A stretch of 25,980 nucleotides of DNA from Armatimonadota bacterium (lineage in GTDB: Bacteria; Armatimonadota; UBA10988), in NCBI GenBank assembly GCA_016235455.1, contig JACRKZ010000094.1:1-25980 (forward strand). Direction: 5' to 3'. The notes under the pieces are model-generated. The model saw only the letters and a list, made by a program, of their open reading frames with translations. It did not search any database and was not told the DNA's origin. Below are positions 4,127 through 20,612 of the stretch, piece by piece; within the stretch, counting starts at the first letter, position 1, and each line of letters begins with the position of its first letter. The position numbers were made by a program, and so were the translations under genes.

Positions 4127-4132
4127 CCGCGA

Positions 4133-5305: not shown

Positions 5306-6543
5306 CCCGCCGCTACCTCCTGACCACCGCCCTGCTCGGCGCCTTGCTGGCGCTGCCGGCCCAGGACACCCCGCCGCCGCCGCTGCACCTGGCGGTCATC
5401 GGCTTGACGCTGGACTACCTGGAGCCGTGTGACTGCGGTGGGCAGAACGCCGGCGGGTTGGCCCGACGCGCGGCGCTGATCGCCGAGCTGCGGCGCGAAT
5501 GGCCCGATCTGGTGCTGGTCGACGCGGGCGACCTGGGCCAGGACGACCAGCGCCTGGCGGTGACCACCCGCGCCTTGGCCGCCGTCGGCGTCGATGGCAT
5601 CGCGCTGGGCAGCGTCGACCTGGACCGCTGGGCGACGCTCGCGCCGCTGCTGCGCGAACGCGGGCTGGCGGCGAGCAGTGTCACGCCACTGGTGCCGGGC
5701 CTCACTACGGAGCCCGCGCCGCCGGCGAGCCAGATCGTCGCCGCGGTGGGCGGGCCGCGGCTGGGCGTGGTTTCCGTGGCCGAAGGGCTGCTGAGCGGCG
5801 CGCGCCTGGCCGCGGCGACCCAAGCCGAGTTGCTCGCGCTACGCGGGCAAGGCGCGGCCTATCGGCTGCTGGTGGCGCATCTGCCGCGCGCCACCGCCGA
5901 GCGGCTGGTCGACGCGCTGTCGCCCGAGGCGCGGCCCGATGTGGTGGTCCTGGCCACCGACAATGACCAGCCGGCGCTGGCCAGACGGCGCGAGGGCGTG
6001 ACCTGGGTGCTGCTGGCGCACAAGGGCCGGTCGCTGGCGACGATGACCCTGGCGCCCGGCGCCGAACCCGTGGTGCGGCACACGCTGGTCGCCACGGGCG
6101 AGCGTGAGGCGCTCGTACAGGGCTGGGTGGACAGCTACTTCGCCGCGCTGCGGGCCGGCCAGGCGCCGCCGCCGGCCGGCGCGGCCAGCTTCCCGCGCCC
6201 CGAGGCCTGCGCCAAATGCCACGGCGCGGTGGTCGCCGCCTGGCAACAGCACCCGCACGCACGCGCGGTGGCGACGCTGGAGGAGCGCAAGCGCGATGTG
6301 GCGGCCTGCCTGCGCTGTCACGATGAGCGGCTGCGGCGCGACGGCGTGCGCTCGGCGGCCGGCCCGCGCGGGGTGGAGTGCGCGAGCTGTCATGACAAGC
6401 TGGCCGAGCATGTGGCGCGGCCCGAGAGCAGGCCGGGGCGGCTGGCCTGCGACCGCTGCCACACCGCCGAGCACAGCCCGCGGTGGCAGGCGGAGACCTA
6501 TGGCCGGTCGGTGGCCGAGGTGTGTCGCGCCAAGGCGCCGTGA
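5302..6543 (+). CDS. UshA/5'-nucleotidase-like N-terminal domain fused to a c554-like multiheme cytochrome c (4 CxxCH)
   Basis: ATGA overlap with upstream gene. LEPCDC...GGLARRA and LVDAGD in the N-domain. Heme motifs CAKCH, CLRCH, CASCH, CDRCH (6208-6462), with W...PHARA after the first. Confidence 0.8.
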   Translation: MTRRYLLTTALLGALLALPAQDTPPPPLHLAVIGLTLDYLEPCDCGGQNAGGLARRAALIAELRREWPDLVLVDAGDLGQDDQRLAVTTRALAAVGVDGIALGSVDLDRWATLAPLLRERGLAASSVTPLVPGLTTEPAPPASQIVAAVGGPRLGVVSVAEGLLSGARLAAATQAELLALRGQGAAYRLLVAHLPRATAERLVDALSPEARPDVVVLATDNDQPALARRREGVTWVLLAHKGRSLATMTLAPGAEPVVRHTLVATGEREALVQGWVDSYFAALRAGQAPPPAGAASFPRPEACAKCHGAVVAAWQQHPHARAVATLEERKRDVAACLRCHDERLRRDGVRSAAGPRGVECASCHDKLAEHVARPESRPGRLACDRCHTAEHSPRWQAETYGRSVAEVCRAKAP

Positions 6544-6644: not shown

Positions 6645-7724
6645 ATGTCCCAGGCTACCTTGTCGCTCAAGCCCGATCTGGCCGACGCCACCGCGCACTG
6701 GCTGGCCTTCTGGGAGCACCAGATCATCGACCGGCCCGCGTGCAGCATCCGCGCGCCCAAGGCCGGCGCCACGGCCGTCGGTGGGCCGCCCTATCTGGCC
6801 GGCGCCGTGGGCGATTGGCAGCCGGTCGTCGCGCAGGCGTTGGCCTCGCTGGAGGGCACCTACTGGGCTGGCGAGGCGATTCCCGCCTATGTGCCGAGCT
6901 TCGGGCCGGACCAGATGGCCGCGTTCCTGGGCGGTGAACTGATCGTCCCCGCCGACGACAGCCACTACGGCACCGACTGGGTGCTGCCCAATGTCGAGAG
7001 CTGGGATGACTCGCTGCCCTTCGTGCTCGACCCGGACAACGTCTGGTGGCAGCGCATGCTCGCCTTCTACCGCGACCTGGCCGCCGCCTTCGAGGGTAAA
7101 GCCGTGCTGGCGCACCTTGACCTGCACTCGAACATGGACACGCTGCTGGCGCTGCGTGGCGGCGAGAAGCTGTGCCTCGACCTGGCGCTCGAGCCCGAGG
7201 CCATCGACCGCGCCATGGCCAGCGTGCGCTCGCTCTATGCGCCGATCTACGACGGCGTCTATGAGGCCGGGCAGATGGCGCGCTGTGGCACCGTGGGCTG
7301 GGTGCCGGCGTATCATCCGGTGCGCACGAACACCATCCAGTGCGATTTCGCCGCGCTCATCGGCCCCCGGCAGTTCGACAAGTGGGTGGCGCCGGCCCTG
7401 GCCGAGGAGGCCGCGCACCTGGGCCACTGCGTCTACCACCTGGACGGGCCGGAGTGCATCGTGCACCTCGAGACGCTCTGCGCCATCGAGGGGCTCGACT
7501 GCATCCAGTGGGTGCACGGCGCGCGCAACGCGGGCTTCCGCGAGTGGATGGATCTGCTCCGGCGCATCCAGAGCCTGGGAGTCGCTGTGTGGGTCCCTTG
7601 TGGCGTGGACGAGATACCGTACTATCATGGGGAGCTCGATCCGACGCTGGTCTGGTATGACGCCTGGGCCGGTTCGGAGCAGCAGGCCGATGAGACGCTC
7701 GAATGGCTGAAGAAGAACACCTAG
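6645..7724 (+). CDS. Uroporphyrinogen decarboxylase / MtaA-CmuA (corrinoid methyltransferase-like) family protein
   Basis: AGGAG RBS. Motifs W.HQIIDRP, FGPD.MAAFLG, DTLLALRG, IQCDFAALIGP, YHLDGP and IQWVHG are typical of this TIM-barrel family. Confidence 0.75.
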   Translation: MSQATLSLKPDLADATAHWLAFWEHQIIDRPACSIRAPKAGATAVGGPPYLAGAVGDWQPVVAQALASLEGTYWAGEAIPAYVPSFGPDQMAAFLGGELIVPADDSHYGTDWVLPNVESWDDSLPFVLDPDNVWWQRMLAFYRDLAAAFEGKAVLAHLDLHSNMDTLLALRGGEKLCLDLALEPEAIDRAMASVRSLYAPIYDGVYEAGQMARCGTVGWVPAYHPVRTNTIQCDFAALIGPRQFDKWVAPALAEEAAHLGHCVYHLDGPECIVHLETLCAIEGLDCIQWVHGARNAGFREWMDLLRRIQSLGVAVWVPCGVDEIPYYHGELDPTLVWYDAWAGSEQQADETLEWLKKNT

Positions 7725-9376
7725 ACGCGCCTGACAGTATCGTCGCGGCGGCCGAGAGCGGCCCCGCCGCCACGGCCGGCGGCGCGGCGCTGCGCTCGGC
7801 CACGCGCGGGGCGGTAATCAGCGCGGCGCTGATCCTGCTCAGCCGGGTCACCGGCTTGGGCCGGGACATGGTCATCACCGCGGTGTTCGGCCAGGACATC
7901 TACACCGACTGCTTCAAGGCGGCGTTGCAGGTGCCCGACCTGCTGTTCTTCCTCATTGCTGGCGGGGTTCTGTCCAGTTCGTTCATGCCCACCTACGCCG
8001 AGTACCGGCGTGAGCATGGCGAGGAGGCGGCCTGGGAGCTGTGCAGCGTGGTGCTCACGCTGTGGACGGTGTTCGCCCTGGTGCTGGTCACCGTGGGCGA
8101 GGTGTTCGCCGTGCCGCTGGTGCGGACGTTGGCCACGCCGGGCCCCAAATGGACGCCGGAGCAAATCGCCTTCGTCGTCAACATGACGCGCATCGTGTTG
8201 CCCGCGCAGATCGCCTTCTTCACCGGCGGCGTGCTGATGGGCATCCAGTGGGTGCATCGCGACTTTGTCATCCCCGGCATCGGCCCGACCGTCTACAACG
8301 TGTGCATCATGGCCGGCGGCGCGATAGGCGGGCTGAGTCTGGGTTCGCGCGGCGTCATCGGCCTGGTCTGGGGCGGCCTGTGCGGCGCCTTCCTGGGCAA
8401 TCTGGCGCTGCAGTTCTATGGTGTGATGCGCTATCGGCCGCGGCTCCGGTTCTCGCTCAACTGGCGGCATCCCGGTGCGCAGCGCGTGTTCGTGCTGATG
8501 CTGCCGGTCATCTTCAGCCTGTCCATGCCCCAGGTCGACGTGCAGATCAACAAGTGGTTCGCCGCGGCCTGGCTGCCGGCCGGCGCGCTCAGCGCGCTGG
8601 ACACCGCCTACCGGCTGATGCTGCTGCCCGTGGGCGTGCTGGGCCAGGGCGTGGCCACGAGCTTCTACGCCACCATGACCAACCTGGTGGCCGAGCAGCG
8701 CATGGACGACTACCGCGCCACGGTGGTCCATGGCTTGCGCCAGCTGGCCGTCGTCGCGCTGCCGGTCACCGCGCTGCTGCTTGTGCTGCGCGTGCCAGTG
8801 GTGGCGGTGCTGTTCGAGCGCGGCCGGTTCACACGCGGCGACACGCTGCTGGTGGCTGGCGCGATGGCGCTCTACGGGCTGGGCATCTACTTCTGGTGCG
8901 CCGAGCAGTTGCTGGGCCGCGCCTTCTACTCACTCTCCGATACCAGAACGCCGCCCTGGTGCGGCACGGTGGTGACGGTCATCTTCATCGGCCTCGACTG
9001 GCTGCTGATGCGCGTGTTCATCACGCATTGGGGTCCGGGCTCGGGCTACCTGGGTCTGGCGCTGGCCACGACCATCGCCGCCGGCCTGTACGCGGTGGCG
9101 CTGCTGGTGCTGCTGCGGCGCAAAGTGGGGCCGCTGGGTCTGCGCTCGCTGTTCGTGTCGATGGTCAAGGCGCTGGCGGCGTCGGCGGCACTGGCCGCGG
9201 TGGCTTGGGCCATGCTGCGCGTGCTAGCCTCGGCGGGCACTGACGGCCCGCTGATCAGCCTGATCGTCGCTGGTGGCGCGGGTGTCTTGGCCTATGCGGG
9301 CGCGGCGCGGACGCTGGGGCTGGAAGAAGCCACGGCCATGGCCGACCGTCTGCTGGGTCGTCTCCGCCGCGGCTGA
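7703..9376 (+). CDS. murJ: Lipid II flippase MurJ (MviN)
   Basis: SRVTGLGRD..I...FG, A.QVPDLLF, AGG.LSSSFMP, RLM.LPVGV, LFERGRF and RAFYSL.DTRTP, with many TM segments. Start overlaps the upstream gene by 22 nt and is uncertain. Confidence 0.92.
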   Translation: MAEEEHLDAPDSIVAAAESGPAATAGGAALRSATRGAVISAALILLSRVTGLGRDMVITAVFGQDIYTDCFKAALQVPDLLFFLIAGGVLSSSFMPTYAEYRREHGEEAAWELCSVVLTLWTVFALVLVTVGEVFAVPLVRTLATPGPKWTPEQIAFVVNMTRIVLPAQIAFFTGGVLMGIQWVHRDFVIPGIGPTVYNVCIMAGGAIGGLSLGSRGVIGLVWGGLCGAFLGNLALQFYGVMRYRPRLRFSLNWRHPGAQRVFVLMLPVIFSLSMPQVDVQINKWFAAAWLPAGALSALDTAYRLMLLPVGVLGQGVATSFYATMTNLVAEQRMDDYRATVVHGLRQLAVVALPVTALLLVLRVPVVAVLFERGRFTRGDTLLVAGAMALYGLGIYFWCAEQLLGRAFYSLSDTRTPPWCGTVVTVIFIGLDWLLMRVFITHWGPGSGYLGLALATTIAAGLYAVALLVLLRRKVGPLGLRSLFVSMVKALAASAALAAVAWAMLRVLASAGTDGPLISLIVAGGAGVLAYAGAARTLGLEEATAMADRLLGRLRRG

Positions 9377-9483
9377 TGCCCGGGCGGCGAGGCTGATACC
9401 CAGCCTGGTCGATTGACCGCGCAATGCGAACAAATGGGTTCAAGAAGCGTCTCGGTGAGACCAAATGAAGGTTCGGTTAGGCA

Positions 9484-9512
9484 TTGACCACGCCTAGGGG
9501 CAGTGCTATGCT
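9484..9512 (+). promoter_or_regulatory. Sigma70-type promoter with extended -10
   Basis: TTGACC (9484-9489), 17-nt spacer, TGc-TATGCT (9507-9512), within a locally AT-rich intergenic region. Confidence 0.7.
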
Positions 9513-9547
9513 GGTATTGAAGTTTTCTATGAAGGCTGAGATTGGCA

Positions 9548-10027
9548 ATGGCTGATTGGGCCGAGATGAGTTTTGGTGAGCTGTCCAGGCGATACGAGGA
9601 CCTCGTGCGAGGCATACGTGCCGACTTGGCGACGTTGGCCGAGGTGGGACCGGTGCTGACCGCGAAGGCCGCCGACCTGGGCATGTCGATCGCGCTGGAT
9701 TACAGTTCGTTGGCCGCGGCGGCCACGGACTTGGTGGGTGGTCGCGCCAAGGGCGCGAGCGCCAGCCGGCGTGGCGCCAAGCCGGGCCGTTCGCACCGCT
9801 ATGCGCTGGTCTGGAAGAAGACCGGCCAGCCAGTGATGGATGACGACGGTCAGCCGCTGCGCTTCCGCAACCAGCTCAAGATGCTGCGCGGACCCAAGTA
9901 CGAGCGGCTCATTGGTGAGACCAAGATCAGCGGCGTGCAGCTGGTGGACACCGAGGCGGATGACGCCGTGGTGGAGCCTCAGATGGCGCTGGGCCCAGCG
10001 CCGGGTGGCCGGCGTCCGCGGGGCTGA
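9548..10027 (+). CDS. Small hypothetical protein (N-terminal amphipathic helices, basic linker, small C-terminal domain)
   Basis: ORF with GC-rich third positions directly downstream of a good promoter. ATG 9548 is preferred over TTG 9542. No family recognised. Confidence 0.7.
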   Translation: MADWAEMSFGELSRRYEDLVRGIRADLATLAEVGPVLTAKAADLGMSIALDYSSLAAAATDLVGGRAKGASASRRGAKPGRSHRYALVWKKTGQPVMDDDGQPLRFRNQLKMLRGPKYERLIGETKISGVQLVDTEADDAVVEPQMALGPAPGGRRPRG

Positions 10028-10206
10028 GACAGAGTCTCCGCCGACCAATTCTCTACGAGTGCGGCAGTCCGAGACACGCGTTTTGTGTCGATCGGGCTGC
10101 CGTTCCCCTTTTTCCGGGAATGGTTGGGTAGTGTCTCAGCTCTAGTGAGACGAGCAGGCACGGCGGCACGAAGAAGTGCTGGACAAAGACAGTGAGGGAG
10201 AGAAAG

Positions 10207-10280
10207 TAGCGAGGGAGGGACTCGAACCCTCGACCTAGCGATTATGAGTCGCTCGCTCTAACCGGCTGAGCTACCTCGCC
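10207..10280 (-). tRNA. tRNA with CAU anticodon, most likely elongator tRNA-Met; CCA not encoded
   Basis: Reverse strand folds as a cloverleaf: GGCGAGG/CCTCGCT acceptor, GCTC/GAGC D-stem, AGCGA-CTCATAA-TCGCT anticodon arm, GAGGG-TTCGAGT-CCCTC T-arm, discriminator A; 74 nt. No initiator features. Confidence 0.95.
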
Positions 10281-10308
10281 ACGATGGCGCTCGGCACCAA
10301 CGGGCAGC

Positions 10309-10337
10309 ACTCTATCGCGAAGCCTCTCTCCTGTCAA
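10309..10337 (-). promoter_or_regulatory. Sigma70 promoter of the tRNA gene
   Basis: Minus strand reads TTGACA (10337-10332), 17-nt spacer, TAGAGT (10314-10309), about 28 nt upstream of the tRNA 5' end. Confidence 0.75.
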
Positions 10338-10396
10338 GCCACCGCGACCCGGTAGGCGCGGGGTACGCGGCGGCGGAGCAAGCAAGGGTAGACGAC

Positions 10397-11287
10397 ATGA
10401 AGGGCACAGACTTTCTGAGCGCGGCGGATATCACCGCCCGGCAAGCGACGGACCTGCTCGACTCGGCCATGCGGCTCAAGGCCGATCGGCTGGGCTGCCG
10501 AGCGTTGGCCGGCCGGGTCTTGGCGATGATCTTCGAGAAGCCGTCGCTGCGCACCCGGGTCAGCTTCGAGACGGGCATGGTGCAGCTCGGCGGGCACGCG
10601 ATCTATCTGGCGCCGAGCGACATCTCGCTGGGCCGGCGGGAGAGCGTAGGCGATGTGGCGGCCAACCTGTCGCGCATGGTCGACGGCATCATGGCGCGGG
10701 TCTTCGAGCACGAGAAGGTGGTCGGCTTGGCCGCCGGCGCCGACGTGCCGGTGATCAACGGCCTGTCCGACTGGGAGCATCCCTGCCAGGCGTTGGCCGA
10801 CTTCCAGACCATCGCCGAGCACCGGGGCCTGGCCAATCGGCCGACGCTGGTGTTCGTCGGCGACGGCAACAACGTCTGCCATTCGCTGATGCTGCTGGCC
10901 AAGACGCTCGACGTGCCCATGCGCGTGGCCTGCCCGGTGGGCTTCGAGCCCGATCCGGCCATCTGCGCGGCGTGCCCCGACATTGAGGTCGTGCACGACC
11001 CCCTCGCCGGCGTCAGCGGCGCCGACGTCATCTACACCGATGTCTGGGCGTCGATGGGCCAGGAAGACTCCGCGGCGCATCGCAAGCAGGTCTTTGCCAG
11101 CTTCCAGGTCAATGCGGCGCTCATGGCGCGCGCAAAGCCGGACGCCATCTTCATGCACTGCCTGCCCGCGCATCGCGGCGAGGAGGTCACCGCCGAGGTG
11201 ATCGACAGCCCGCGGTCGGTGGTGCTGGACCAGGCTGAGAACCGCTTGCACGCCCAGAAAGCGTTGCTCGTCGCGCTCATGGGCTGA
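10397..11287 (+). CDS. argF: Ornithine carbamoyltransferase
   Basis: FEKPSLRTR, RES..D, VINGLSD.EHPCQALAD, GDGNNV, YTDVWASMG, FMHCLP and QAENRLH. Confidence 0.95.
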   Translation: MKGTDFLSAADITARQATDLLDSAMRLKADRLGCRALAGRVLAMIFEKPSLRTRVSFETGMVQLGGHAIYLAPSDISLGRRESVGDVAANLSRMVDGIMARVFEHEKVVGLAAGADVPVINGLSDWEHPCQALADFQTIAEHRGLANRPTLVFVGDGNNVCHSLMLLAKTLDVPMRVACPVGFEPDPAICAACPDIEVVHDPLAGVSGADVIYTDVWASMGQEDSAAHRKQVFASFQVNAALMARAKPDAIFMHCLPAHRGEEVTAEVIDSPRSVVLDQAENRLHAQKALLVALMG

Positions 11288-11483
11288 GCGGCTGCCCGGG
11301 TTGACGCATCCCCTGGCCTGTGGCACCCTCTGGGTTCACGGGCCAGGGCATGCTTCCGCCATGCACGCGGTTGCCGCACGACTGTGCTAGACACACGTTC
11401 GCTGCTGGATCTGGCGCCGGTGTCCAGCGGTGTCCGCGCCGCCTGAGTTGGCGTGCGGTGCCCGCCGAAGGAGTGTGGCGTAG

Positions 11484-12389
11484 GTGGCGCAGGCAGTCGT
11501 CGGCAGCGCAACCATCAGTGCTGGGCCCGACACCTGGGCGATCAGCGCCGGTGACGATGGCGCGTGGCAGACCGTGCGGTTCCTGGCCGACGCCATGGGC
11601 GACCTCGGCCCGCCGCCCGGCGGCGCACCGATCGTGTGGCTGACCTGCGACAGCGATGCCCAGTGGCCTGAGTGCGTGGCGGATCTGGTGCGCGCCGGGC
11701 GGCGAGGCGAGGCGCACCGTGTCTCGCTGCCGCGCTTGGGTCGTACGGCGAACGCTACCCCCACCGGCAACGCCATGGTTCTGGCTGGGGCACTGGCGCA
11801 GGGCCACGAGTGTGGTGGGCTGTTCCACGGCGGACTGGTCGAGCGCCACGGCCTGGGCATGCTGTTCTGCGCGCCTGGCGGCACGGGCAAGTCCACCGCC
11901 TGCGGGCGTCTGCCGGCGGGCTGGCACGCACACTGTGACGACACGGCGCTGGTTCTGCCGGCCGCCGAGCAGGGCTGGTGGGCGCATCCGTGGCCCACTT
12001 GGAGCCGCTTCGAGCCCGATGGGCCCGGTGGCCGGTGGGACACGTCATCACGCGTGCCCCTGCGGGCTGCGTTCTACCTGGAGCAGGCCGAGCGCGACGA
12101 GATCATCGCCGTGGGAAGCGGGGAGTCGGCAGCCAGGCTCTACGCCGCCGCGGAGCAGGCCCGGCGCATGCTCGTGCGCGGCTTGAGCGCCGAGGAACAG
12201 CGCGTGCGGCGGCAGCGCTGGTTCGATGACGCTGCCCGGCTGGCGGGTGCGCTGGTCGGTTACCGGCTGCGCTTGACGCGCACTGGGCACTTCTGGGAGT
12301 TGCTGGAGCCCATCATCGCCGCTCTGGGCAGGAGCCTGGCGAACGGCGACGAAGTCTGCGCGGACGCACGCCGTCCGATGGGAGTGTGA
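11484..12389 (+). CDS. scmC: SynChlorMet cassette protein ScmC (HPr-kinase-like P-loop protein)
   Basis: AAGGAG RBS upstream of GTG. FHGGLVERHG.G.LFCAPGGTGKST (Walker A), HCDD and HPWPTWS; sits next to PqqD and two rSAM genes. Confidence 0.8.
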   Translation: MAQAVVGSATISAGPDTWAISAGDDGAWQTVRFLADAMGDLGPPPGGAPIVWLTCDSDAQWPECVADLVRAGRRGEAHRVSLPRLGRTANATPTGNAMVLAGALAQGHECGGLFHGGLVERHGLGMLFCAPGGTGKSTACGRLPAGWHAHCDDTALVLPAAEQGWWAHPWPTWSRFEPDGPGGRWDTSSRVPLRAAFYLEQAERDEIIAVGSGESAARLYAAAEQARRMLVRGLSAEEQRVRRQRWFDDAARLAGALVGYRLRLTRTGHFWELLEPIIAALGRSLANGDEVCADARRPMGV

Positions 12390-12679
12390 TCGGGATGATG
12401 GCATACCCGCTGGCCGACCCACTGGTGGTCCTGCGCGAGGAATTCGACGACTGGGCGGTGCTGTTCCATCCCGACACGGGCGCGGCCGTCGGGCTCAACC
12501 CCGTGGGCGTGGCCATCTGGCAGCGCCTGGACGGCCGGCACACGGTGCCCGGCATCGTCACCGAGTTGACCGAGACGTTTGACGGCGTGCCCGGCAGTGC
12601 CGTTGAGGAGGTCCACGCTTTTGTCGCGGACCTGATCGAGCGCGGCTTCGTGGGCTCGGCCCAGAGCCAGCCCGGCTGA
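12386..12679 (+). CDS. scmD: PqqD-family RiPP recognition element (SynChlorMet ScmD)
   Basis: P.VVLREEFDDWAVLF.PDTG...GLNPVG..IWQRLDG.HTV..I...L...F....V..FV.DL.ERGF is a classic stand-alone PqqD pattern. Start is GTG 12386 or ATG 12395/12398. Confidence 0.9.
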   Translation: MIGMMAYPLADPLVVLREEFDDWAVLFHPDTGAAVGLNPVGVAIWQRLDGRHTVPGIVTELTETFDGVPGSAVEEVHAFVADLIERGFVGSAQSQPG

Positions 12680-12696
12680 AGCCGGAAGGAGACCCC

Positions 12697-12882
12697 ATGG
12701 AACGGACAGCCGAAGTCAAGGAACAGCAGCGCGACCGCGAGCCCGAGCGCCGCGAGTGGCAGGCACCGGTGGTGGTCGATCTGCTCGGCCAACCACGCGG
12801 CATTGGTAACGGCGGCGCCTGCCTCTCGGGCAGCTCCGACGCCACGGTGTGCGGCGCCGGCGGCACCGGGCCGGGCACCTAG
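12697..12882 (+). CDS. Candidate RiPP precursor peptide (61 aa)
   Basis: AAGGAG RBS at 12686-12691; fills the gap between the PqqD and rSAM genes. Charged leader with WQAPVVVDL, then Gly/Cys/Ser/Thr core GNGGACLSGSSDATVCGAGGTGPGT. Confidence 0.85.
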   Translation: MERTAEVKEQQRDREPERREWQAPVVVDLLGQPRGIGNGGACLSGSSDATVCGAGGTGPGT

Positions 12883-12883
12883 T

Positions 12884-14005
12884 TTGCCACCAGGCGCCGC
12901 GCATGCGCAGCCGCAGCCCGAGGCCGGGCCGCGGCTGGCGCAGTTCTACTTCTACCTGACCGAGGGCTGCAACTGCGCCTGCCGGCACTGCTGGTTGGCG
13001 CCCAAGTTCGACCCCGAGGCCACGCGCTATCCGACGCTGCCCGTGGCGGCGTTCGAGCGGGTCATCGCCGAGGCACTACCCCTGGGCCTAGGGCGCGTGA
13101 AGCTCACCGGCGGCGAGCCGCTCATGCATCCCGACATCGGCGATCTGCTGGCTGTCGTCCGGCGCGAGGACCTGGCGCTGACCGTTGAAACCAACGGCCT
13201 GCGGCTGACCGAAGCGCTGGCCGACGCCATCGCGGGTTGCCGGCAGCCCTTCGTGTCGGTCAGCCTCGATGGCGCCGAGGCGGGGTACCACGACAAGGTG
13301 CGCGGCGTGCCGGGTGCGTTCGACCTGGCGGTCGCGGGTGTGCGCCATCTGGTCGAGGCCGGGCTGAAGCCGCAACTGATCCTCTCGGTCATGCGCGACA
13401 ACGTGGGTCAGGTGGAGCCGGTGGTGCGACTGGCCGAGCAGCTCGGCGCCGGGTCGGTCAAGTTCAACCTGATCCAGCCCACCGAGCGCGGCGTGGCCTT
13501 GCACGAACAAGGCGATTCGTTGACGGTGCCCGAGCTGATCGACCTGGGTCGGTGGGTGGAGGGCGACCTGGCCGGCAGCACCGAGTTGGCGCTCCATTTC
13601 GACTATCCGCGCGCCTTCCGCTCCCTGGCGCGGCTGGCCACGCGCGGCGGGCAGGGCAGTTGCGGCATCCTCGGCATCCTCGGCGTCCTGGCCAGCGGGC
13701 AGTATGCCCTGTGTGGCATCGGCGAGTCGGTCCCGGAGCTGCTGTTTGGGCAGGTGGGCCAGGTCCCGCTGGCCGAGGTCTGGTACCAGCACCCCGTGCT
13801 GCTCGCGCTACGCGATGGGCTGCCCGGCAAGTTGGGCGGCATCTGCGCCGAATGCCTGCAGAAATCGGACTGTCTGGGCTCGTGCATCGCTCAGAACTAC
13901 TACCGCGCGAAGGACCTGTTCGCGCCGTACTGGTTCTGCGAAGAGGCCGACCAACTGGGCCTCTTCCCCGCGTCCCGCCGCGTGCCGGTCGCGGCCAAGG
14001 GTTGA
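12884..14005 (+). CDS. scmF: SynChlorMet radical SAM/SPASM protein ScmF
   Basis: YFYLTEGCNCACRHCW.APK (CxxxCxxC), KLTGGEP, ETNG, SVSLDG. SPASM cysteines CGI...ALCGIG...CAEC...CLGSCIAQNY...WFC. Start placed at the in-frame TTG 12884 just after the precursor stop. Confidence 0.85.
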   Translation: MPPGAAHAQPQPEAGPRLAQFYFYLTEGCNCACRHCWLAPKFDPEATRYPTLPVAAFERVIAEALPLGLGRVKLTGGEPLMHPDIGDLLAVVRREDLALTVETNGLRLTEALADAIAGCRQPFVSVSLDGAEAGYHDKVRGVPGAFDLAVAGVRHLVEAGLKPQLILSVMRDNVGQVEPVVRLAEQLGAGSVKFNLIQPTERGVALHEQGDSLTVPELIDLGRWVEGDLAGSTELALHFDYPRAFRSLARLATRGGQGSCGILGILGVLASGQYALCGIGESVPELLFGQVGQVPLAEVWYQHPVLLALRDGLPGKLGGICAECLQKSDCLGSCIAQNYYRAKDLFAPYWFCEEADQLGLFPASRRVPVAAKG

Positions 14006-14007
14006 CC

Positions 14008-15114
14008 ATGGCTGACTCCCCGGTCGCGGTGATGCGCTCACCGCGCAAGGTGCACCTCGAGATCACGGCCAAGTGCAACCTGCGCTGCCGGTACTGCTAC
14101 TTCTTCGCCGGCGACAGCGACAAATACCACGATCTGCCCACCGAGGCCTGGTTGCGCTTCTTCGCCGAGTGCGGTCAGGCCGGGGTCATGCACGCGGTCA
14201 TCGCCGGTGGCGAGCCGTTCGCGCGCGACGACCTGCGCGAACTGCTCGAGGGCCTGATGGCCAACCGGATGCGCTTCTCGCTGATCTCCAACGGCGGGCT
14301 GTTGACGGCCGAGATGGCGCGCTTCCTGCGCGACTGCGGACGTTGCGACAGCGTGCAGATCTCGCTCGACGGCTCCTGCCCCGAAACCCACGACGCAGGC
14401 CGCGGCGCCGGCTCCTGGGACGGCGCCGTGCGCGGGCTGCGGCTGCTGCTCGAGCATGGGCCGGCGGCGACGGTGCGCGTCACCATCCATCGGCACAACG
14501 TCGACGACCTGGCGGCCACGGCCAAGATGCTTCTGGAGGACTTCGGCCTGCCGGCCTTCAGCACCAACGCCGCGGGCTACCTGGGCGCCTGTCGACAGCA
14601 TTCGGACAGCCTGCTGCTCAGCCTGGCCGAGCGGGAGCGCGCCATGTCCACACTGGCAATGCTGGCCGAACGCTATCCCGGCCGCATCGGCGCCGCCGCC
14701 GGCCCGCTGGCCGATGTGCGCCTGTGGCGCCATATGGACGAGGCGCGCCGGTCGGGCGCCGCACCGTCCGCGCGCGGCGGCCATCTGACGGCCTGCGGCT
14801 GCGTTCGAGCCGAGCTGTCCGTCAGTTGTGACGGCCACTACATCGCCTGCTCCATGCTGCCGCACCTGCGGTTGGGCCGCATCAACCAGGACCGGCTGAC
14901 CGACATCTGGCGCGATGCACCGGCTCTGGTGGCCATGCGCGCGCGCGCGGCCATTCCGTTGAGCGATTTTGCTTTCTGCGATGGCTGCGAGTGGCGTGAC
15001 CACTGCACCGGCAACTGCCCTGGCCTGGCCTACTCGCTGACCGGCCAGGTGGACCACCCCAGTCCCGACGCCTGTCTGCGGCGCTATGTCGAGGCTGGCG
15101 GGCGGATCGTCTAG
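14008..15114 (+). CDS. scmE: SynChlorMet radical SAM/SPASM protein ScmE
   Basis: MRSPRKVHLEITAKCNLRCRYC, GGEPF, SNG, QISLDG. SPASM CGC...IAC...CDGC...CTGNCPG...PDAC. ATG is 2 nt after the scmF stop; the ORF-track extension to 13237 is an artefact. Confidence 0.88.
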   Translation: MADSPVAVMRSPRKVHLEITAKCNLRCRYCYFFAGDSDKYHDLPTEAWLRFFAECGQAGVMHAVIAGGEPFARDDLRELLEGLMANRMRFSLISNGGLLTAEMARFLRDCGRCDSVQISLDGSCPETHDAGRGAGSWDGAVRGLRLLLEHGPAATVRVTIHRHNVDDLAATAKMLLEDFGLPAFSTNAAGYLGACRQHSDSLLLSLAERERAMSTLAMLAERYPGRIGAAAGPLADVRLWRHMDEARRSGAAPSARGGHLTACGCVRAELSVSCDGHYIACSMLPHLRLGRINQDRLTDIWRDAPALVAMRARAAIPLSDFAFCDGCEWRDHCTGNCPGLAYSLTGQVDHPSPDACLRRYVEAGGRIV

Positions 15115-15118
15115 CGCC

Positions 15119-15727
15119 ATGGACCCGCACCCCGACGCGCCGGTCACGAGGCTGGTCTTCGAAGGGCGCAGCATGTGGCCCACGCTGCGCGAGCCCGCGC
15201 TGCTGGACATCGAGCCCGTCGGCCTCGACCAGGTGCGGCGCGGCGATGTGCTGGCCTTCCGCTCGGCCGAGGCTGGCGGCCATGTCATCCACCGCGCGGT
15301 AACCCATACCCCGGCCGGCTGGCGCACCCGCGGTGACAACAACCCCGCTGACGATCCCGAGTTGCTGACCGCCGAGCGGCTGCTAGGTCGCGTGGTGGCC
15401 TGCTCCGTCGGCCGACAGCGCCGGCGCGTGCGCAACGGGGGCCTGGGTCTGGCCTGGCATCGGTGGCGGCGGGTGGCGCGGGCGGTGCGCGGCGGATTGG
15501 CACGCGCGGGCCTCGGCCGGCCACTGCGCTGGGCGGCACGCCGTTGTGCGCTGGTGCTGGCGCGATGGCTGCCACGCGCCTGGCGACCGACCAAAGTCAG
15601 CTACGCCGATGGCCGTGCGCAGTGGGTGCTGGGCCGGCGCGTGCTGGCCCGCCAGTCGGAGCCCGGCGGGCCTTGGCAAGGTCGGTGGTGGGCGCGCCTG
15701 CTGGTCGACGAGGAGACGTGGCGATGA
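15119..15727 (+). CDS. S24/S26-family peptidase (signal-peptidase-like), candidate leader peptidase
   Basis: GRSMWPTL (catalytic Ser box), RGDVLAF, VIHR and TRGDNN...D. ATG is 4 nt after the scmE stop; no N-terminal TM anchor. Confidence 0.8.
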   Translation: MDPHPDAPVTRLVFEGRSMWPTLREPALLDIEPVGLDQVRRGDVLAFRSAEAGGHVIHRAVTHTPAGWRTRGDNNPADDPELLTAERLLGRVVACSVGRQRRRVRNGGLGLAWHRWRRVARAVRGGLARAGLGRPLRWAARRCALVLARWLPRAWRPTKVSYADGRAQWVLGRRVLARQSEPGGPWQGRWWARLLVDEETWR

Positions 15728-16854
15728 GCCCCGAGGAAGCAATCGTCGCGTTGATCAGCGGCGGCCAGTGGCCGGCCTCGGGCGAGGTCTGGACCGCGTT
15801 GCTCCAGCGTGCCAGCCTCCTTGGCCTGGCACCCGTGCTGGCCGCCCATCTGCCTGTCGACGCGCCGACCGAGGTGGTCAGTGAGCTGCGCCTGGCCTCG
15901 ATGGCGGCCACCGCACGCCATGCCCGTGCCGCCCATCAGCTGGCCGAGTTGCTGCGCGGCGCTGCGGTGCTCGATGTGCCGGTCGTCGCGCTCAAGGGCA
16001 GTTGTCTGGCGACCGAGGCCTATGCGCACCCATCACAGCGCACGTTCGGTGACCTCGACCTGCTGGTGCGGCGCGCGGACCTGCCCCAGGTGGAGGCGCT
16101 CAGCGAGTCGTTGGGCTACCGCCGCAGCGAGTACGAGCACGAAGGTGGGCATCACCTGGCGGTCCGCCAGCGAACCGGGTCGCTCAGCGTCGAGTGGCAC
16201 TGGCGGCCCATTGCCTGCCAGTTCGCGCCGGGGCTGGACGAGGGCGAACTGGGCGCCGTGTGGCGGCGAATGCGACCGTTCGTCGTGGCTGGTGAGCAGG
16301 CTCTCATGCTGTCGCCCGAAGACCAGTTGCTGACGCTCAGCGCCCACTGGGCCCTGAGCAACCGGTGCGCCGGTGGGCCCAGGCCGTTACTGGACATCGC
16401 CGTGGCCTGTCGCGCCTGGGCGCACGCCATCGACTGGGTGGAGCTGTGGGCTCGAGCCGGCCGCTGGCGGTTGACCCATGCGCTGGCCATGACGCTGACC
16501 ATGGCGCGTGAGATGGCCGCGGCGCAGGTGCCCGAAAGCCTGCCCGTGGCGCCCAGCGCCGAGCATCTGGCGCGCGTGCGCGGCCGCGTGCTCGGCCAGA
16601 CCGATCCGCGCCACGCCATGCTGCTGGCCGAGGCGGTGCACCGGGGGCCGCTGGCCGTGGTCAAGGCTGTCGTGCAGCGGCTGGCCGACCCGCGCGACAC
16701 GCCGGGCCGGGGCGTCGGTCGATGGTACCGCCACTGGTGCGGGCTGTGGCAGCGCCAGGGCGAGGTGGTGGCAGGCATGGCGAGTCGCTCCGGCCGGGCC
16801 GCACTGGCGGCCGAGGGCGACGTGGCCGATTGGCTCGCCGAAAGCGCTGATTAG
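15724..16854 (+). CDS. Nucleotidyltransferase family protein (NTP_transf_5-like)
   Basis: ATGA overlap with the peptidase. VALKG..LA...Y.....R.FGDLDLLV, VEWHW, LSPEDQLL....H, LLDIA and IDW. Confidence 0.85.
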   Translation: MSPEEAIVALISGGQWPASGEVWTALLQRASLLGLAPVLAAHLPVDAPTEVVSELRLASMAATARHARAAHQLAELLRGAAVLDVPVVALKGSCLATEAYAHPSQRTFGDLDLLVRRADLPQVEALSESLGYRRSEYEHEGGHHLAVRQRTGSLSVEWHWRPIACQFAPGLDEGELGAVWRRMRPFVVAGEQALMLSPEDQLLTLSAHWALSNRCAGGPRPLLDIAVACRAWAHAIDWVELWARAGRWRLTHALAMTLTMAREMAAAQVPESLPVAPSAEHLARVRGRVLGQTDPRHAMLLAEAVHRGPLAVVKAVVQRLADPRDTPGRGVGRWYRHWCGLWQRQGEVVAGMASRSGRAALAAEGDVADWLAESAD

Positions 16855-18998
16855 CGCCGCAGGAGCGCGTCCGCCGCGTCCATGACCTGCTGGAGGGTGA
16901 ACGGCTTGCCCAGCACGGCGTCGACGCCGCTCTGCTCGATCTGCTCGGGCTTGAGCTGGTCGCGGAAGCCGGTGAGCAACATCACCGGGGTGCCCCGGCC
17001 CGACTCCTTGACGGCGCGGATGACCTCCCAGCCGGACAGGTCGTCGGTGCGCAGGTCGGTGCAGACCAGGTCGTAGCTGCGCTCGCCAAAGCGCTCGATG
17101 CCCTCTCGGCCGCCGGCGCAGGTGTCCACCTCGAACCCGACCGACGAGAACAGCTCGGCGAGCACCTCGCACAGCGCTTCCTCGTCGTCGATGACCAGCA
17201 CGCGCAGTGGACTGGTGACCGGCTCCTCGGCCTCCTGGGCGCTCAGCGGCAGCGTGATGCTGACCGTGGTACCGACATTCGGCGCGCTCTCCACCTCGAT
17301 CTCGCCACGGTGCCGGGTGATGATGCCGTAGGTGACGCTGAGGCCCAGGCCCACGCCGGTCTCGGCCTTGGTGGAGTAGAACGGATCGAAGATGCTCTGC
17401 TGCTCCTCGGTGGACATGCCGCGGCCGCGGTCGACCACCGTGATGAACAGATGCTCGGTGGCCACATGGGCGTTGAGCGCCACCACGCCGCCGCTGGGCA
17501 TGGACTCGCACGCGTTGCGCAGCACGTTGCCCACGGCCTCGGCCAACTCGTCCGGATTGGCCAGCAGCACGCCGTCGAGTTGGCCGGGGTTGAGCTCGAT
17601 GTGGTATTTGGCCGGGTTCAGCTTGCTCACCTCGGCCAGTTGGGCGCGCGCGGCATCTTCCAGCCGCTGCCACACGGAGGCGACGTTGATCGGCTGCAGG
17701 TCTTCCTCGCTGCGTTCGCGCGTGAACTCCTGCAGGCGGCGGACGGTCTCGGCGGCGCGCCAGCCGATCTCGAAGATGGTGCGCAGGCCCTTATGGATGC
17801 GGTGATCGCTGGTCTGCCGCTGGAGCATCTGGGCGCGACCCAGAATGCCGCCAAGCGCGTTGTTGAACTCGTGCGCCACACCGCCGGCCATCTGCGCCAG
17901 AGCGCGGAACTTGGCGCCTTCGGTGGCGGCGTCCTGGGCGCGGTGCAGCCGTTCCAGGGCCTCCTCCTGCGCGCGCAGCAGGCCCGCGTCGCGTAGCGCC
18001 AGCGAGATGTGGAAGCTCAGCCGGTCGAGCATCTTGCGCGAGCGCCGGCTGATCTGGTCGGCCTGGCCAAACCCGACGACCAACACGCCAAACAGCCGGC
18101 GATCGAACACCAGCGGCTGGAATACGGCGCGCTGCACATGGGCCTCGCGCAGCATCTGGCCGACGCGGTCGCTGGGCTCGGTGCCCGGCGACTCCACCAG
18201 CACCGCCTGCTCACTGGCCGCGCGGAACACCTGCGGTGCTTCCGCGGCGCTGATGGTGAAGCGCTCGATGGGCAGATGCACCTCGAAGCGGTCGAGCCCG
18301 TCCTCGCAACGGGCCACCATGGCGAAGTTGGCGCGCAGCAGACGCGCCACGTTGCCCGCCGCCTGGCGCGAGGCGTCCTCGGCGTCGCGGCGGGCGTGGA
18401 GTTCGGAGACTGCGCGGCGATAGCCCTCTTCGTCGCCGATGTCGGTGGGCGTGATGACCACCTGCGCATCGACCAGCAGCGCATGGGTGACGAGACTGGC
18501 CGTCAGGGTCCAACGCTCGCGGTCGAACCCGAACCAACCGCCCTCATCCTCGGTGTAGATCGACACCAAGCCGATCACATGGCCCTCGACGGCCAGCGGC
18601 AGGATGAGCACGCAGCGCAGACCGACGGCTGTGACGAGCGTGCGCCAGGCGCCGTTGGGCACTGCCTCGTCGTCCAGGTCGAACGCGTCGACGCGGGCCG
18701 CCAGCCGCTCGATGACCCACTCGGGCTCGGCGACCTTCATGGCTGCCGACTGCGGGCCGGCCGCGGCCAGCAGAGTCCAGCCGGCGGGCTCCAGCCAACG
18801 CACGGCGACCGTGTGATCCGGCTCGGCCAGCAGGCGTGCGACGGCTTCGGCGCGCGTCTCGCGCCCGCCCGACCCCAGACAGATGGCGGCCAGCGCCATC
18901 AACTGCTGGTCAGTGTGTCCTGCCCGCTGTGCCATCTGTGCCGTTGTGCCTTGCCCGCCGATCATCCAGAACTCCCCTGCGTCGGACTCATCGGCCAA
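16851..18998 (-). CDS. Hybrid sensor histidine kinase/response regulator with GAF domains
   Basis: GAF-like LPLAVEGHVIGLV and QPLVFDRRLFGVL. H-box AHEFNNAL, N-box NVLRNA, DRGRGM, FDPFYSTK, G.GLGLS. C-terminal REC (VIDDE, VCTD, LTG, KPF). No obvious TM; start uncertain. Confidence 0.9.
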   Translation of the reverse strand: MADESDAGEFWMIGGQGTTAQMAQRAGHTDQQLMALAAICLGSGGRETRAEAVARLLAEPDHTVAVRWLEPAGWTLLAAAGPQSAAMKVAEPEWVIERLAARVDAFDLDDEAVPNGAWRTLVTAVGLRCVLILPLAVEGHVIGLVSIYTEDEGGWFGFDRERWTLTASLVTHALLVDAQVVITPTDIGDEEGYRRAVSELHARRDAEDASRQAAGNVARLLRANFAMVARCEDGLDRFEVHLPIERFTISAAEAPQVFRAASEQAVLVESPGTEPSDRVGQMLREAHVQRAVFQPLVFDRRLFGVLVVGFGQADQISRRSRKMLDRLSFHISLALRDAGLLRAQEEALERLHRAQDAATEGAKFRALAQMAGGVAHEFNNALGGILGRAQMLQRQTSDHRIHKGLRTIFEIGWRAAETVRRLQEFTRERSEEDLQPINVASVWQRLEDAARAQLAEVSKLNPAKYHIELNPGQLDGVLLANPDELAEAVGNVLRNACESMPSGGVVALNAHVATEHLFITVVDRGRGMSTEEQQSIFDPFYSTKAETGVGLGLSVTYGIITRHRGEIEVESAPNVGTTVSITLPLSAQEAEEPVTSPLRVLVIDDEEALCEVLAELFSSVGFEVDTCAGGREGIERFGERSYDLVCTDLRTDDLSGWEVIRAVKESGRGTPVMLLTGFRDQLKPEQIEQSGVDAVLGKPFTLQQVMDAADALLRR

Positions 18999-19022
18999 CT
19001 GTCGCCGCTCTTTACGGTCGTT

Positions 19023-20486
19023 TCACATTTGCGCCCGCCAGCCACGCCCGGCGTAGGGCAGCGCAGCTGGCTGCCGTTGGCCGACGCGCAGCGCGCCATC
19101 GGCCACAAACCCCTCAGACCGGTCGGCCAACTCGGCGATGAGCCGCTCACGCCAACGCGCCAGCCGCAGCGGTTGCCGCTCGGACAGATTGTGACACTCC
19201 GTGGGGTCGGAGTCCAGTTCAAACAGCAGCTCGCGCCCGGTCTGGGAGTACCAGACATACTTCTCCCGGCCATCGGTGAGCCAGTGGTTGGACCACCGCC
19301 CGCCGGTATGCTCGCCATGGAGCCACTCGCGCACCGGGGCGTCGCCGCCGGCCAGGATGGGCAGCAGGCTATGCCCGTCGACCGTGTCCGGGATCGGCGC
19401 ACCGGCCAGGTCGCAGAAGGTGGGATACAGATCGCGCAGTTCGACCACGGCATCGCTGACCTGACCGCCGGTGCGTGCGCTCCAGCGGTCGCGCGGCAAC
19501 TGCATGATCAGCGGCACCCCGGCCGATCCGGCGAACGGCTGGGCCTTGGCGATCAGGCGGTGGTCGTAGAGCAGGTCGCCGTGGTCGGAGACGAAGGCGA
19601 TGGCCGTGTCGGCCAGCACGTCGTCCTCGCTGAGCGCCATGAACAGCCGGTTGATCTGATGGTCGATGAAGGTGCACTGGGCATAGTAGGCGCGGCGGGC
19701 CAGGTCGACTTGTGCGGGGTCGCTGGGCACGGGGCTGTCCAAGCCGCGGCACAGGTCCAGTTCGTGCTCCACCCAGTCGCCGACCGGCAGCGGCGGCAGC
19801 GGCTTGCTCAGATAGCGGTCGAGGTAGCTCTGCGGCGGGTCGAGCGGCGGATGCGGCCGATGGTAGCTGGCCATGAGGAAGAACGGCTGCGTCGGGTCGC
19901 GTCGGCGCAGGAAGTCGATGCTCTGTGTGGTGACCCAGGCTGTGGGATGCAGCATGGGGTCGCGCGTCCAGGGCTGGACGGCATAGCCGTTGCAGCCCAT
20001 GCCGGTATCGACATAGTCGGCATAGGCCATCTGGGTGCGCTCGCGCAGCCAGGGCAGGTAGTCATCGAAGCGGCCGTAGTCGAGGCCGCCTCGCCGGCCG
20101 TAGTGCAGATAGCCGTCGTGCAGCTGCACTTCGTCGAAGCCGACGCGGTTGCGCTGCGGATGGGTGTGCATCTTGCCCACGCACTGGGTCTGATAGCCGG
20201 CCTGCCCGAGGGTGCGTGGCAGCGTCTGCTCATACTCCCAGACGATGGCGTCCTGGTAGCCGACATAGCCATGATGGGCCGGGGTCATGCCCGTGAGCAG
20301 ACCGGCGCGCGCGGCAATGCACGACGGGCAGGCGGTATAGGCCTGGCGGAATCGCGTGCCACCGGCGGCCAAGGTGTCCAGGTGGGGCGTCTCGACCACC
20401 GAATGGCCGGCACAGCCGAGCGCATCGGCGCGCCACTGGTCGACCATTATCAAGACGAGGTTGGGGCGACGGGTTGGCTCGCTCAA
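19023..20486 (-). CDS. Arylsulfatase (formylglycine-dependent, S1 family)
   Basis: RPNLVLIMVDQWR, TPHLD, CPSCIAARAGLLTG (CxAxR), GKMH, PHPP, SDHGD. Start at TTG 20486 with GGAG upstream (alternative GTG 20501). Confidence 0.92.
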   Translation of the reverse strand: MSEPTRRPNLVLIMVDQWRADALGCAGHSVVETPHLDTLAAGGTRFRQAYTACPSCIAARAGLLTGMTPAHHGYVGYQDAIVWEYEQTLPRTLGQAGYQTQCVGKMHTHPQRNRVGFDEVQLHDGYLHYGRRGGLDYGRFDDYLPWLRERTQMAYADYVDTGMGCNGYAVQPWTRDPMLHPTAWVTTQSIDFLRRRDPTQPFFLMASYHRPHPPLDPPQSYLDRYLSKPLPPLPVGDWVEHELDLCRGLDSPVPSDPAQVDLARRAYYAQCTFIDHQINRLFMALSEDDVLADTAIAFVSDHGDLLYDHRLIAKAQPFAGSAGVPLIMQLPRDRWSARTGGQVSDAVVELRDLYPTFCDLAGAPIPDTVDGHSLLPILAGGDAPVREWLHGEHTGGRWSNHWLTDGREKYVWYSQTGRELLFELDSDPTECHNLSERQPLRLARWRERLIAELADRSEGFVADGALRVGQRQPAALPYAGRGWRAQM

Positions 20487-20612
20487 GGGTGGTGTCTCCA
20501 CACGGCCATTTCGGCTTGGGGGCGCGTAACCCTTCCGAGGAGGATCGCCCGCCCGTCGGGCCAATGGAGGCCAGCGCGCCCAGGCACCGTGCCGGGTCGA
20601 TGGAGTGCCGAG

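Follow-up and report, generated by a model that had tools for sequence, protein, structure and literature searches.

The SynChlorMet cassette is already catalogued as TIGR04248-TIGR04252, with its precursor peptide family, ScmA, as NCBIfam TIGR04252. A literature search found no paper on the cassette or its product within the library covered; the supplements of PMC10288494 may list Scm-type clusters, and the name 'Scm' is absent from a review of the SPASM enzymes which act on ribosomally made, post-translationally modified peptides (RiPPs). In this work we analyzed a stretch of 25,980 nucleotides from an Armatimonadota bacterium (assembly GCA_016235455.1, contig JACRKZ010000094.1, positions 1 to 25,980 of the forward strand; the whole stretch is called the window below), in which a short open reading frame (ORF) at 12697-12882 is placed between the genes of a PqqD-type protein and a radical S-adenosylmethionine (SAM) enzyme. 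This ORF very probably encodes an ScmA-type precursor peptide of the SynChlorMet RiPP pathway. The peptide is a divergent and minimal member of a precursor family which is catalogued but chemically unstudied, and its particular features are the two-unit core (the shortest seen), its charged N-terminal extension of 20 residues, the gene order C-D-A-F-E and an orphan second copy.

Several systems with described chemistry come close to this locus, and they are given here as in the parts of the cited papers that were used. Streptosactin (GggA/GggB) is a type II sactipeptide whose rings, Cys31-Gly34 and Cys25-Ser28, are formed by a SPASM enzyme and are small, sequential and un-nested (PMC8172795), and CrpC installs ranthionine links on a Cys-rich protein (PMC13692751). 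In actinobacteria, PqqD-like proteins recognize lasso precursors by a YxxPxL motif in the leader (PMC6784204). In lasso systems of the paeninodin/pseudomycoidin type the linear precursor is the substrate of a kinase, and the phosphate receives an addition from a nucleotidyltransferase homologue (PMC9266682). Close too is the PqqA/PqqD/PqqE system of pyrroloquinoline quinone (PQQ), in which a short precursor likewise comes with a SPASM enzyme and a free-standing PqqD-type protein.

The translation of 12697-12882 is MERTAEVKEQQRDREPERREWQAPVVVDLLGQPRGIGNGGACLSGSSDATVCGAGGTGPGT. The ORF begins 17 nucleotides beyond the stop of ScmD, a region in which an AAGGAG site is present, and its features are as follows.

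12697..12882, + strand: gene of the very probable ScmA-type precursor, 61 residues (P0001); ATG at 12697, TAG at 12880-12882
12686..12691, + strand: ribosome-binding site AAGGAG, read from the sequence, 5 nucleotides before the precursor ATG
12757..12783, + strand: leader recognition motif W21-Q-A-P24-V-V-V-D-L29 (W21 at 12757-12759), with a putative role in ScmD binding
12799..12807, + strand: small-x-small site G35-I36-G37; leader cleavage is proposed after G37 from the -3/-1 rule and the co-located S26 peptidase gene
12820..12831, + strand: first core unit C42-L-S-G45, read from the sequence and the family repeat
12850..12861, + strand: second and last core unit C52-G-A-G55, 10 residues past C42

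The ribosome-binding site, charged N-terminus, W21..P24 motif, two C-x-x-G units and aromatic-free core described in the original prediction, which had been made from the DNA letters, were all found in place. Residues 1-20 are charged and form an N-terminal extension, similar in kind in the paralogue described below. No aromatic residue occurs downstream of W21, and the core is without Tyr. The core has about 24 residues and two Cys units, which look like a first-type unit (C-x-x-G-S-S) with a last-type unit directly behind it that finishes 9 residues past its Cys.

The surrounding operon proteins were scanned with NCBIfam and Pfam under the curated NCBIfam cut-offs, and the following genes were assigned, with their likely starts.

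11484..12389, + strand: ScmC, HPr-kinase/phosphorylase-like P-loop protein; TIGR04249 at 166.2 bits (cut-off 125); GTG start
12386..12679, + strand: ScmD, PqqD-family peptide-recognition protein (RiPP recognition element, RRE); TIGR04248 at 119.2 bits (cut-off 100), PF05402; GTG start
12884..14005, + strand: ScmF, radical SAM/SPASM enzyme; TIGR04251 at 493.1 bits (cut-off 400); probable TTG start
14008..15114, + strand: ScmE, radical SAM/SPASM enzyme; TIGR04250 at 486 bits (cut-off 400); ATG start
15119..15727, + strand: S26 signal-peptidase-I-like peptidase, candidate leader peptidase; TIGR02228 at 46.7 bits (under the 51.85 cut-off); ATG start
15724..16854, + strand: PF14907 nucleotidyltransferase-like protein, accessory, from Pfam; ATG start overlapping the S26 stop

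ScmC, ScmD, ScmE and ScmF of the SynChlorMet cassette are thus all above their cut-offs, adjacent and on one strand. The gene boundaries in the operon overlap or sit 1-17 nucleotides apart; the start of ScmD overlaps the stop of ScmC and the start of ScmF comes 1 nucleotide past the precursor stop, which places the precursor between ScmD and ScmF. The precursor is a real, translationally coupled gene within this operon.

The operon resembles the tailored lasso systems in its HPr-kinase-like ScmC and in the PF14907 gene at its end; the lasso kinases we take to be HPr-kinase homologues, and PsmN is presumably a PF14907 member. Together with the [W/Y]xxPxL-type leader and the PqqD-like protein, these two genes, which accompany some lasso clusters according to the parts used of PMC6784204 and PMC9266682, could suggest a lasso peptide precursor. 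However, two SPASM enzymes are found in place of the cyclase and protease, an N-terminal Gly/Ala/Ser/Cys with Asp/Glu at position 7-9 is not family-wide in the core, and the C-terminal Ser/Thr used by lasso kinases is unconserved in ScmA. Neither a lasso cyclase (asparagine-synthetase-like), whose absence had been claimed from the start, nor a transglutaminase-like leader protease was present among the Pfam and NCBIfam matches of the operon proteins and of those further ORFs of the window which were scanned, a search that did not extend to the remaining genome. The probability of a lasso precursor is therefore next to nil.

The ScmA-type reading was examined by comparison with other loci. Genomes were scanned with ScmF, and of the 80 loci obtained L001-L021 are orthologues at 35-60% identity, while L022-L080 are other radical-SAM loci. 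The 21 orthologue loci are distributed over Chlorobiota, Planctomycetota, Chloroflexota, Nitrospirota, Thermodesulfobacteriota, Actinomycetota and others, with the usual order ScmD-ScmE-ScmF-(small ORFs)-ScmC-S26 peptidase and an S26 match in 13 of them. The small ORFs right after ScmF have a short basic N-terminus, the motif [W/Y]-x-x-P-x-[L/V]-x-x-[L/I], a conserved Gly and repeated C-x-x-G. A seed hidden Markov model (HMM) was built of 15 peptides from 12 other loci, the window peptide being kept out of the seed. At E < 1e-5 it found a peptide in 17 of the 21 orthologue loci, with matches in five of the nine loci outside the seed (L004, L008, L010, L012 and L016), a weak one at L002 (E 0.25) and nothing at L006, L015 and L021. 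At the 59 other radical-SAM loci no match was obtained at E < 0.01, the best being 0.11. A search of short ORFs near other scm loci had been put forward as the check on the claim that the peptide is the precursor of the Scm cassette, and 17 of 21 against 0 of 59 loci bears that claim out. The metagenome scan added 21 more ORFs at E < 1e-8, again just after ScmF.

When a 22-peptide profile was searched against 1.84 billion representative proteins, 1634 matches were found at E <= 0.001 and 27 at E <= 1e-10; the cassette is widespread over phyla, and its precursor family comprises at least this number of representative clusters at E <= 0.001. The matches are mostly of 60-110 residues, and a few long repetitive proteins among them are probably non-members. 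The leader motif is present in 128 of the 138 top matches of <=130 residues, and these 128 have 4-9 Cys with a mode of 5. Among them, Gly is found at Cys+3 for 640 of 675 Cys (95%), neighbouring Cys are 10 residues apart 284 times and 11 residues apart 165 times, and internal units have Ala at Cys+6 in 74%, with Ser/Thr common at +4. The alignment of the 22 peptides (A3) has P24 and G37 invariant in 22 of 22 and C42, C52 and G55 at least 90% conserved. The positions +14 and +16 from the W/Y are small, with A/G/V/T/S in 83% and G/A in 86%.

The window peptide has the same leader (W21, P24, V26, L29), the same invariant Gly about 16 residues past the W/Y (G37) and the same C-x-x-G units as the peptides which weakly match TIGR04252. 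The form and spacing of its units agree with the family, and the ten-residue distance pointed out in the original prediction is exactly the family repeat; the unit count, 2, is lower than the usual 4-9. Two other loci of the scans deserve mention. At L091:3578-3787 (+) a 3-Cys ScmA-like peptide is encoded behind the closest full-length metagenome ScmF (61% identity). At L001:5541-5720 (+), in a Chlorobiaceae genome, the ORF extension upstream of ScmC starts with an ScmA-like leader (M-K-W-K-I-P-L-L-I-D-L) and continues with Cys units, which suggests a third precursor gene besides those at 5186-5386 and 7142-7342.

A second copy of the peptide was found on another contig of the same genome.

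G000:C111:4858-5031, + strand (locus L082): orphan 57-residue precursor paralogue, from the seed HMM and the combined pattern

Its translation is MHEDKPELTEVQHKPAWSPPVVVDLTHAQRGEGFSSCQNGSSDASGCGTGTLGSPMG, and it tops the seed HMM matches among 50,166 small ORFs of the genome (19.2 bits, E 0.0034). The codon alignment of the two copies (n=55) has 17 identical, 10 synonymous and 28 non-synonymous codons. Kept in both are W..PVVVDL, R-G-x-G and C..G-S-S-D-A..C-G-x-G, with one Ser for which the two copies use different codons (TCC and AGC). The 10 synonymous changes, along with the retained leader motif and Cys units, indicate a translated gene under selection on both. The paralogue has an IS200-like Y1 transposase gene (3840-4814) on one side and a VIT-family gene on the other, and no maturase lies in its vicinity. 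In the assembly, which is 93% complete, ScmD, ScmE and ScmF are each found only once above cut-off, so this single cassette would have to serve both precursors and the C111 copy would be matured in trans. The orphan copy means that precursors of the Scm system can be scattered in a genome, which is relevant to genome mining.

The DNA of the window is about 70% G+C and rich in spurious ORFs (87 of at least 40 residues overlap 8000-19000), so it had to be considered that the ORF is no gene but an open frame which arose by chance in intergenic DNA of high G+C content. The seed HMM score of the window peptide, 12.2 bits, would allow this, as it ranks 5th of the 50,166 genome small ORFs (E 0.54) and is not significant genome-wide; yet none of 5000 shuffles equals it, the best reaching 11.5 bits. 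The strong ribosome site and the tight coupling to both flanking genes also speak against a chance frame, together with the synonymous changes in the paralogue. The G+C content at codon positions 1/2/3 of the precursor frame is 0.77/0.59/0.84, and the third position (GC3) tops the others only in the precursor's own frame, the same as in the neighbouring genes (GC3 0.88-0.92), among which ScmD, ScmF and ScmE have 0.88-0.91. A combined pattern of leader, Gly and two C-x-x-G units 6-9 residues apart, composed after the data had been seen, occurs in 2 of the 50,166 genome small ORFs (30-200 residues), namely the precursor ORF and its paralogue. The DNA occurs in public groundwater and freshwater metagenome runs of two studies, with no RNA runs listed. 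From four DNA runs, contigs covering the ORF gave a single population variant inside it, 12792 A>G, a synonymous change of CAA into CAG, one variant being too few to measure selection. Taken together, a chance frame is very improbable. The case for the precursor is carried by its position and the paralogue, the HMM score alone being weak. The original prediction had also considered such ORFs to be easily missed by annotation, which does not hold here: the product was already present in a predicted-protein collection, on 3 contigs, and as both precursor copies are in it, gene callers had found them.

Several other observations, besides the rank of the HMM score, weigh against an ScmA-type precursor. 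The curated model TIGR04252 gives no match to the window peptide at E <= 10, and none of 16 ScmA-like peptides reaches its 35-bit cut-off, the best having 19.4 bits; at E <= 1 it matches 7 of the 16, and the model is evidently narrow. The window peptide has two Cys units, while the fewest elsewhere among motif-bearing peptides is 3 (L091) and the others have 3-15 Cys, and its distance from W to the first Cys is 21 against the usual 18-19. The gene order C-D-A-F-E differs from all 21 other loci (usually D-E-F-A-C). No relative with this order or with a two-unit core was found in the genome and metagenome scans, the 73% metagenome match L125 being a fragment which has ScmD and ScmE in the usual order and lacks a peptide gene between the two. 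ScmF at E <= 1e-40 was found in 0 of 60 related genomes (1 of 61 searched, the window's own), which makes the cassette patchy; the branch of the window ScmF is not unusual, and its nearest genome relative is a Chloroflexia metagenome-assembled genome at 60% identity. A word-based search of 5.8 billion proteins gave no near relatives of the peptide besides the paralogue. With no near relatives and no ScmF in the 60 related genomes, conservation rests on the paralogue and distant family members. The operon has no exporter gene. Only 16 of 134 family members have a C-terminal Ser/Thr, so lasso-style C-terminal phosphorylation is unlikely to be general. Finally, the ScmA family is defined by computation only, and thioether chemistry, ring size and the functions given to ScmC, the S26 peptidase and the nucleotidyltransferase are all putative.

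It may be asked whether the product is a real small operon protein which is not the substrate of the enzymes but acts in regulation or immunity, for example, or as a chaperone-like subunit. The modification and binding of the peptide are putative and the curated ScmA model gives no match, which leaves some room for such a role, but it is improbable, because the leader and C-x-x-G architecture equals that of cassette-associated peptides in other phyla and what the paralogues have kept in common lies mainly in the leader motif and Cys units. Moreover, no other substrate candidate was present in the operon among the ORFs and seed-HMM matches examined.

Similarly improbable is the precursor of a small redox cofactor, PQQ- or mycofactocin-like, rather than of a peptide natural product. 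Such a product is called to mind by ScmD, a PqqD homologue, by PqqE and MftC, to which ScmE and ScmF are related in sequence (among solved sequence relatives PqqE, 6c8v, ranks first or second for each), and by the W-x-x-P leader, which we take to be reminiscent of PqqA. The PQQ pathway differs, however, in having one enzyme, a single Glu-Tyr cross-link and a cofactor as product, and among the 16 ScmA-like peptides no match to the PqqA family was obtained at E <= 1; the core is without the Tyr of the Glu-x3-Tyr cross-link site conserved in PqqA. The number of Cys ranges from 2 to 15 and the intervening, unconserved residues are free to vary, as would suit a peptide product rather than a fixed cofactor. 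The patchy distribution of the cassette over phyla, with its absence from the 60 related genomes, is a further point against a cofactor.

The cassette proteins were analyzed for motifs and folds. ScmF has C29/C33/C36 (CxxxCxxC) and the SPASM motif C321-x2-C-x5-C-x3-C334, and ScmE has C23/C27/C30 (CxxxCxxC) and the SPASM motif CxxCx5Cx3C at C324..C337. The predicted models of ScmE and ScmF (mean predicted local distance difference test, pLDDT, 89.9 and 90.2) match SuiB, SkfB, CteB, anSME and PqqE over the whole length at template modelling (TM) scores of about 0.7, or about 0.6-0.7 with ChlB included. Both Cys motifs and the partial triosephosphate isomerase (TIM) barrel fold of radical SAM/SPASM maturases are present in both proteins. 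With 368 and 373 residues, ScmE and ScmF are without the extra N-terminal domain which is the recognition domain of SuiB and CteB, and this fits the stand-alone PqqD-type ScmD. The models of PapB, StsB and AlbA show generic similarity to them (55-97 bits against cut-offs of 340-850). Since the NCBIfam, PDB sequence and fold searches rank enzymes of differing chemistry equally, no chemistry is assigned from them. Elsewhere in the genome, at G000:C85:43877-45594 (+) (loci L086/L088), there are tandem radical SAM/SPASM-like genes with 108.7 and 73.8 bits to the ScmE model, far under the cut-off, and this pair may be a second peptide-maturase locus.

ScmC has the P-loop GGTGKS at 132-137. In an alignment of 10 rows, from which L005 was left out because of a stop codon within its range, every row agrees at H115, G135-K136, T138 (S137 in the window) and D152-D153. 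Among solved proteins the ScmC profile comes closest to 1jb1, an HPr kinase/phosphorylase, at E 0.0015 and with H-G, G-x-G-K-S and D-D aligned, and the match to TIGR04352 has E 8e-5, below cut-off. ScmC is thus HPr kinase/phosphorylase-like, with a putative kinase activity. The S26 peptidase has the serine motif G-R-S-M-W-P-T-L at residues 16-23, is without an N-terminal hydrophobic segment and weakly matches the nickel superoxide dismutase maturation protease family (E 8.7e-4), which suggests a cytoplasmic pro-peptide peptidase and not a secretory signal peptidase.

On the basis of these observations a maturation pathway may be proposed. ScmD would bind the leader at W21-x-x-P24-V-V-V-D-L29 and present the core to ScmE and ScmF, which would both act by hydrogen-atom abstraction on the core, with C42-L-S-G and C52-G-A-G as the units modified. 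The likeliest product would be one sulfur-to-carbon thioether ring for each C-x-x-G unit, and because Gly at Cys+3 is near-invariant, the simplest guess is a Cys-to-(i+3) ring as in streptosactin. A signal peptidase requires small residues at -3 and -1 of the cleavage site. The S26-type peptidase would cut off the leader behind the invariant G37, where the window peptide has the small-x-small sequence G-I-G, as the small residues at -3/-1 in 83%/86% of the family fit that rule. Cleavage near QPRGIG, which had been suggested earlier, agrees with this site. ScmC, with the nucleotidyltransferase at this locus, may add a phosphate-based decoration like its lasso-precursor counterparts.

The putative thioether rings are favoured by analogy with Cys-rich SPASM substrates. 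Streptosactin is alike in closing a ring to the residue three positions on, the guessed ScmA ring being compared with it through the Gly at Cys+3; it differs in its leader, in its single enzyme, which carries a recognition domain itself, in having no more than two rings and in its setting, quorum sensing in a Firmicute. CteB/SCIFF, PapB and CrpA/CrpC are alike in their Cys-repeat substrates adjoining SPASM enzymes, and CteB (5why) is among the best structural matches of the predicted models of both ScmE and ScmF. These ranthipeptide systems differ in having enzymes with a fused recognition domain and acceptors (Thr, Asp, Asn and others) in different motifs.

A considerable though not prevailing probability is given to the explanation that the peptide is a precursor but the radical-SAM enzymes make no Cys thioethers, the Cys being metal ligands or disulfides and the enzymes acting on Gly (+3), Ala (+6) or Ser/Thr. 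The reactions could be epimerisation, C-C or C-O cross-links, conversion of Cys to formylglycine as in anSME, or Ser phosphorylation by ScmC and elimination towards a lanthionine-type route. This agrees with ScmE and ScmF being equally near to SuiB (C-C), SkfB/CteB (thioether), anSME (Cys oxidation), PqqE (C-C) and EpeE (epimerase), with the conserved Ala at Cys+6 and the common Ser/Thr at +4, and with the HPr-kinase-like ScmC as a core member of the cassette. On the other hand, the only nearly invariant pair of each unit is Cys and Gly+3, and the Cys-rich substrates beside SPASM enzymes have so far been thioether substrates in the sources used in part, e.g. CrpA/CrpC (PMC13692751) and streptosactin (PMC8172795).

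It is possible, but on balance doubtful, that the ScmA peptides are a new RiPP class in which two SPASM enzymes and one PqqD-type protein turn each 10-residue C-x-x-G-x-x-A unit into a small ring, the HPr-kinase-like protein adds phosphate chemistry and the cytoplasmic S26 peptidase removes the leader. One option for such a ring would be a Cys-to-Gly(+3) thioether with a second modification at the conserved Ala. If this is true, the window peptide, which has the first and last unit only, would be a natural minimal substrate for solving the chemistry. With two units and a core of about 24 residues it is the easiest member to express, to mutate and to analyze by tandem mass spectrometry, and such a minimal peptide could show the task of each radical-SAM enzyme and whether the Gly at Cys+3 is the acceptor.

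In the surroundings of the operon, a hybrid histidine kinase gene on the opposite strand converges on it, and ornithine carbamoyltransferase, tRNA-Met and MurJ genes are found upstream. A scan of 11000-17200 gave no promoter-like sites and two terminator-like sites on the minus strand, no more than in shuffles. The Rfam scan gave one tRNA in the window and no RNA elements near the precursor ORF. The tRNA-Met (CAT) is at 10206-10280 (-), just upstream of the ornithine carbamoyltransferase gene and the Scm operon; no mobile-element signs were seen near the tRNA and the operon, and the operon has a G+C content of 0.70-0.74, like its surroundings. Further downstream, at 18009-23303 (+), a 1764-residue protein is encoded with a WbsX-type glycosyltransferase domain at 1303-1589, the remainder being without Pfam match. 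At 5302-6543 (+), amid ORFs without Pfam matches, a multihaem cytochrome-like protein (matches to Cytochrome_C554 and paired CXXCH) is encoded.

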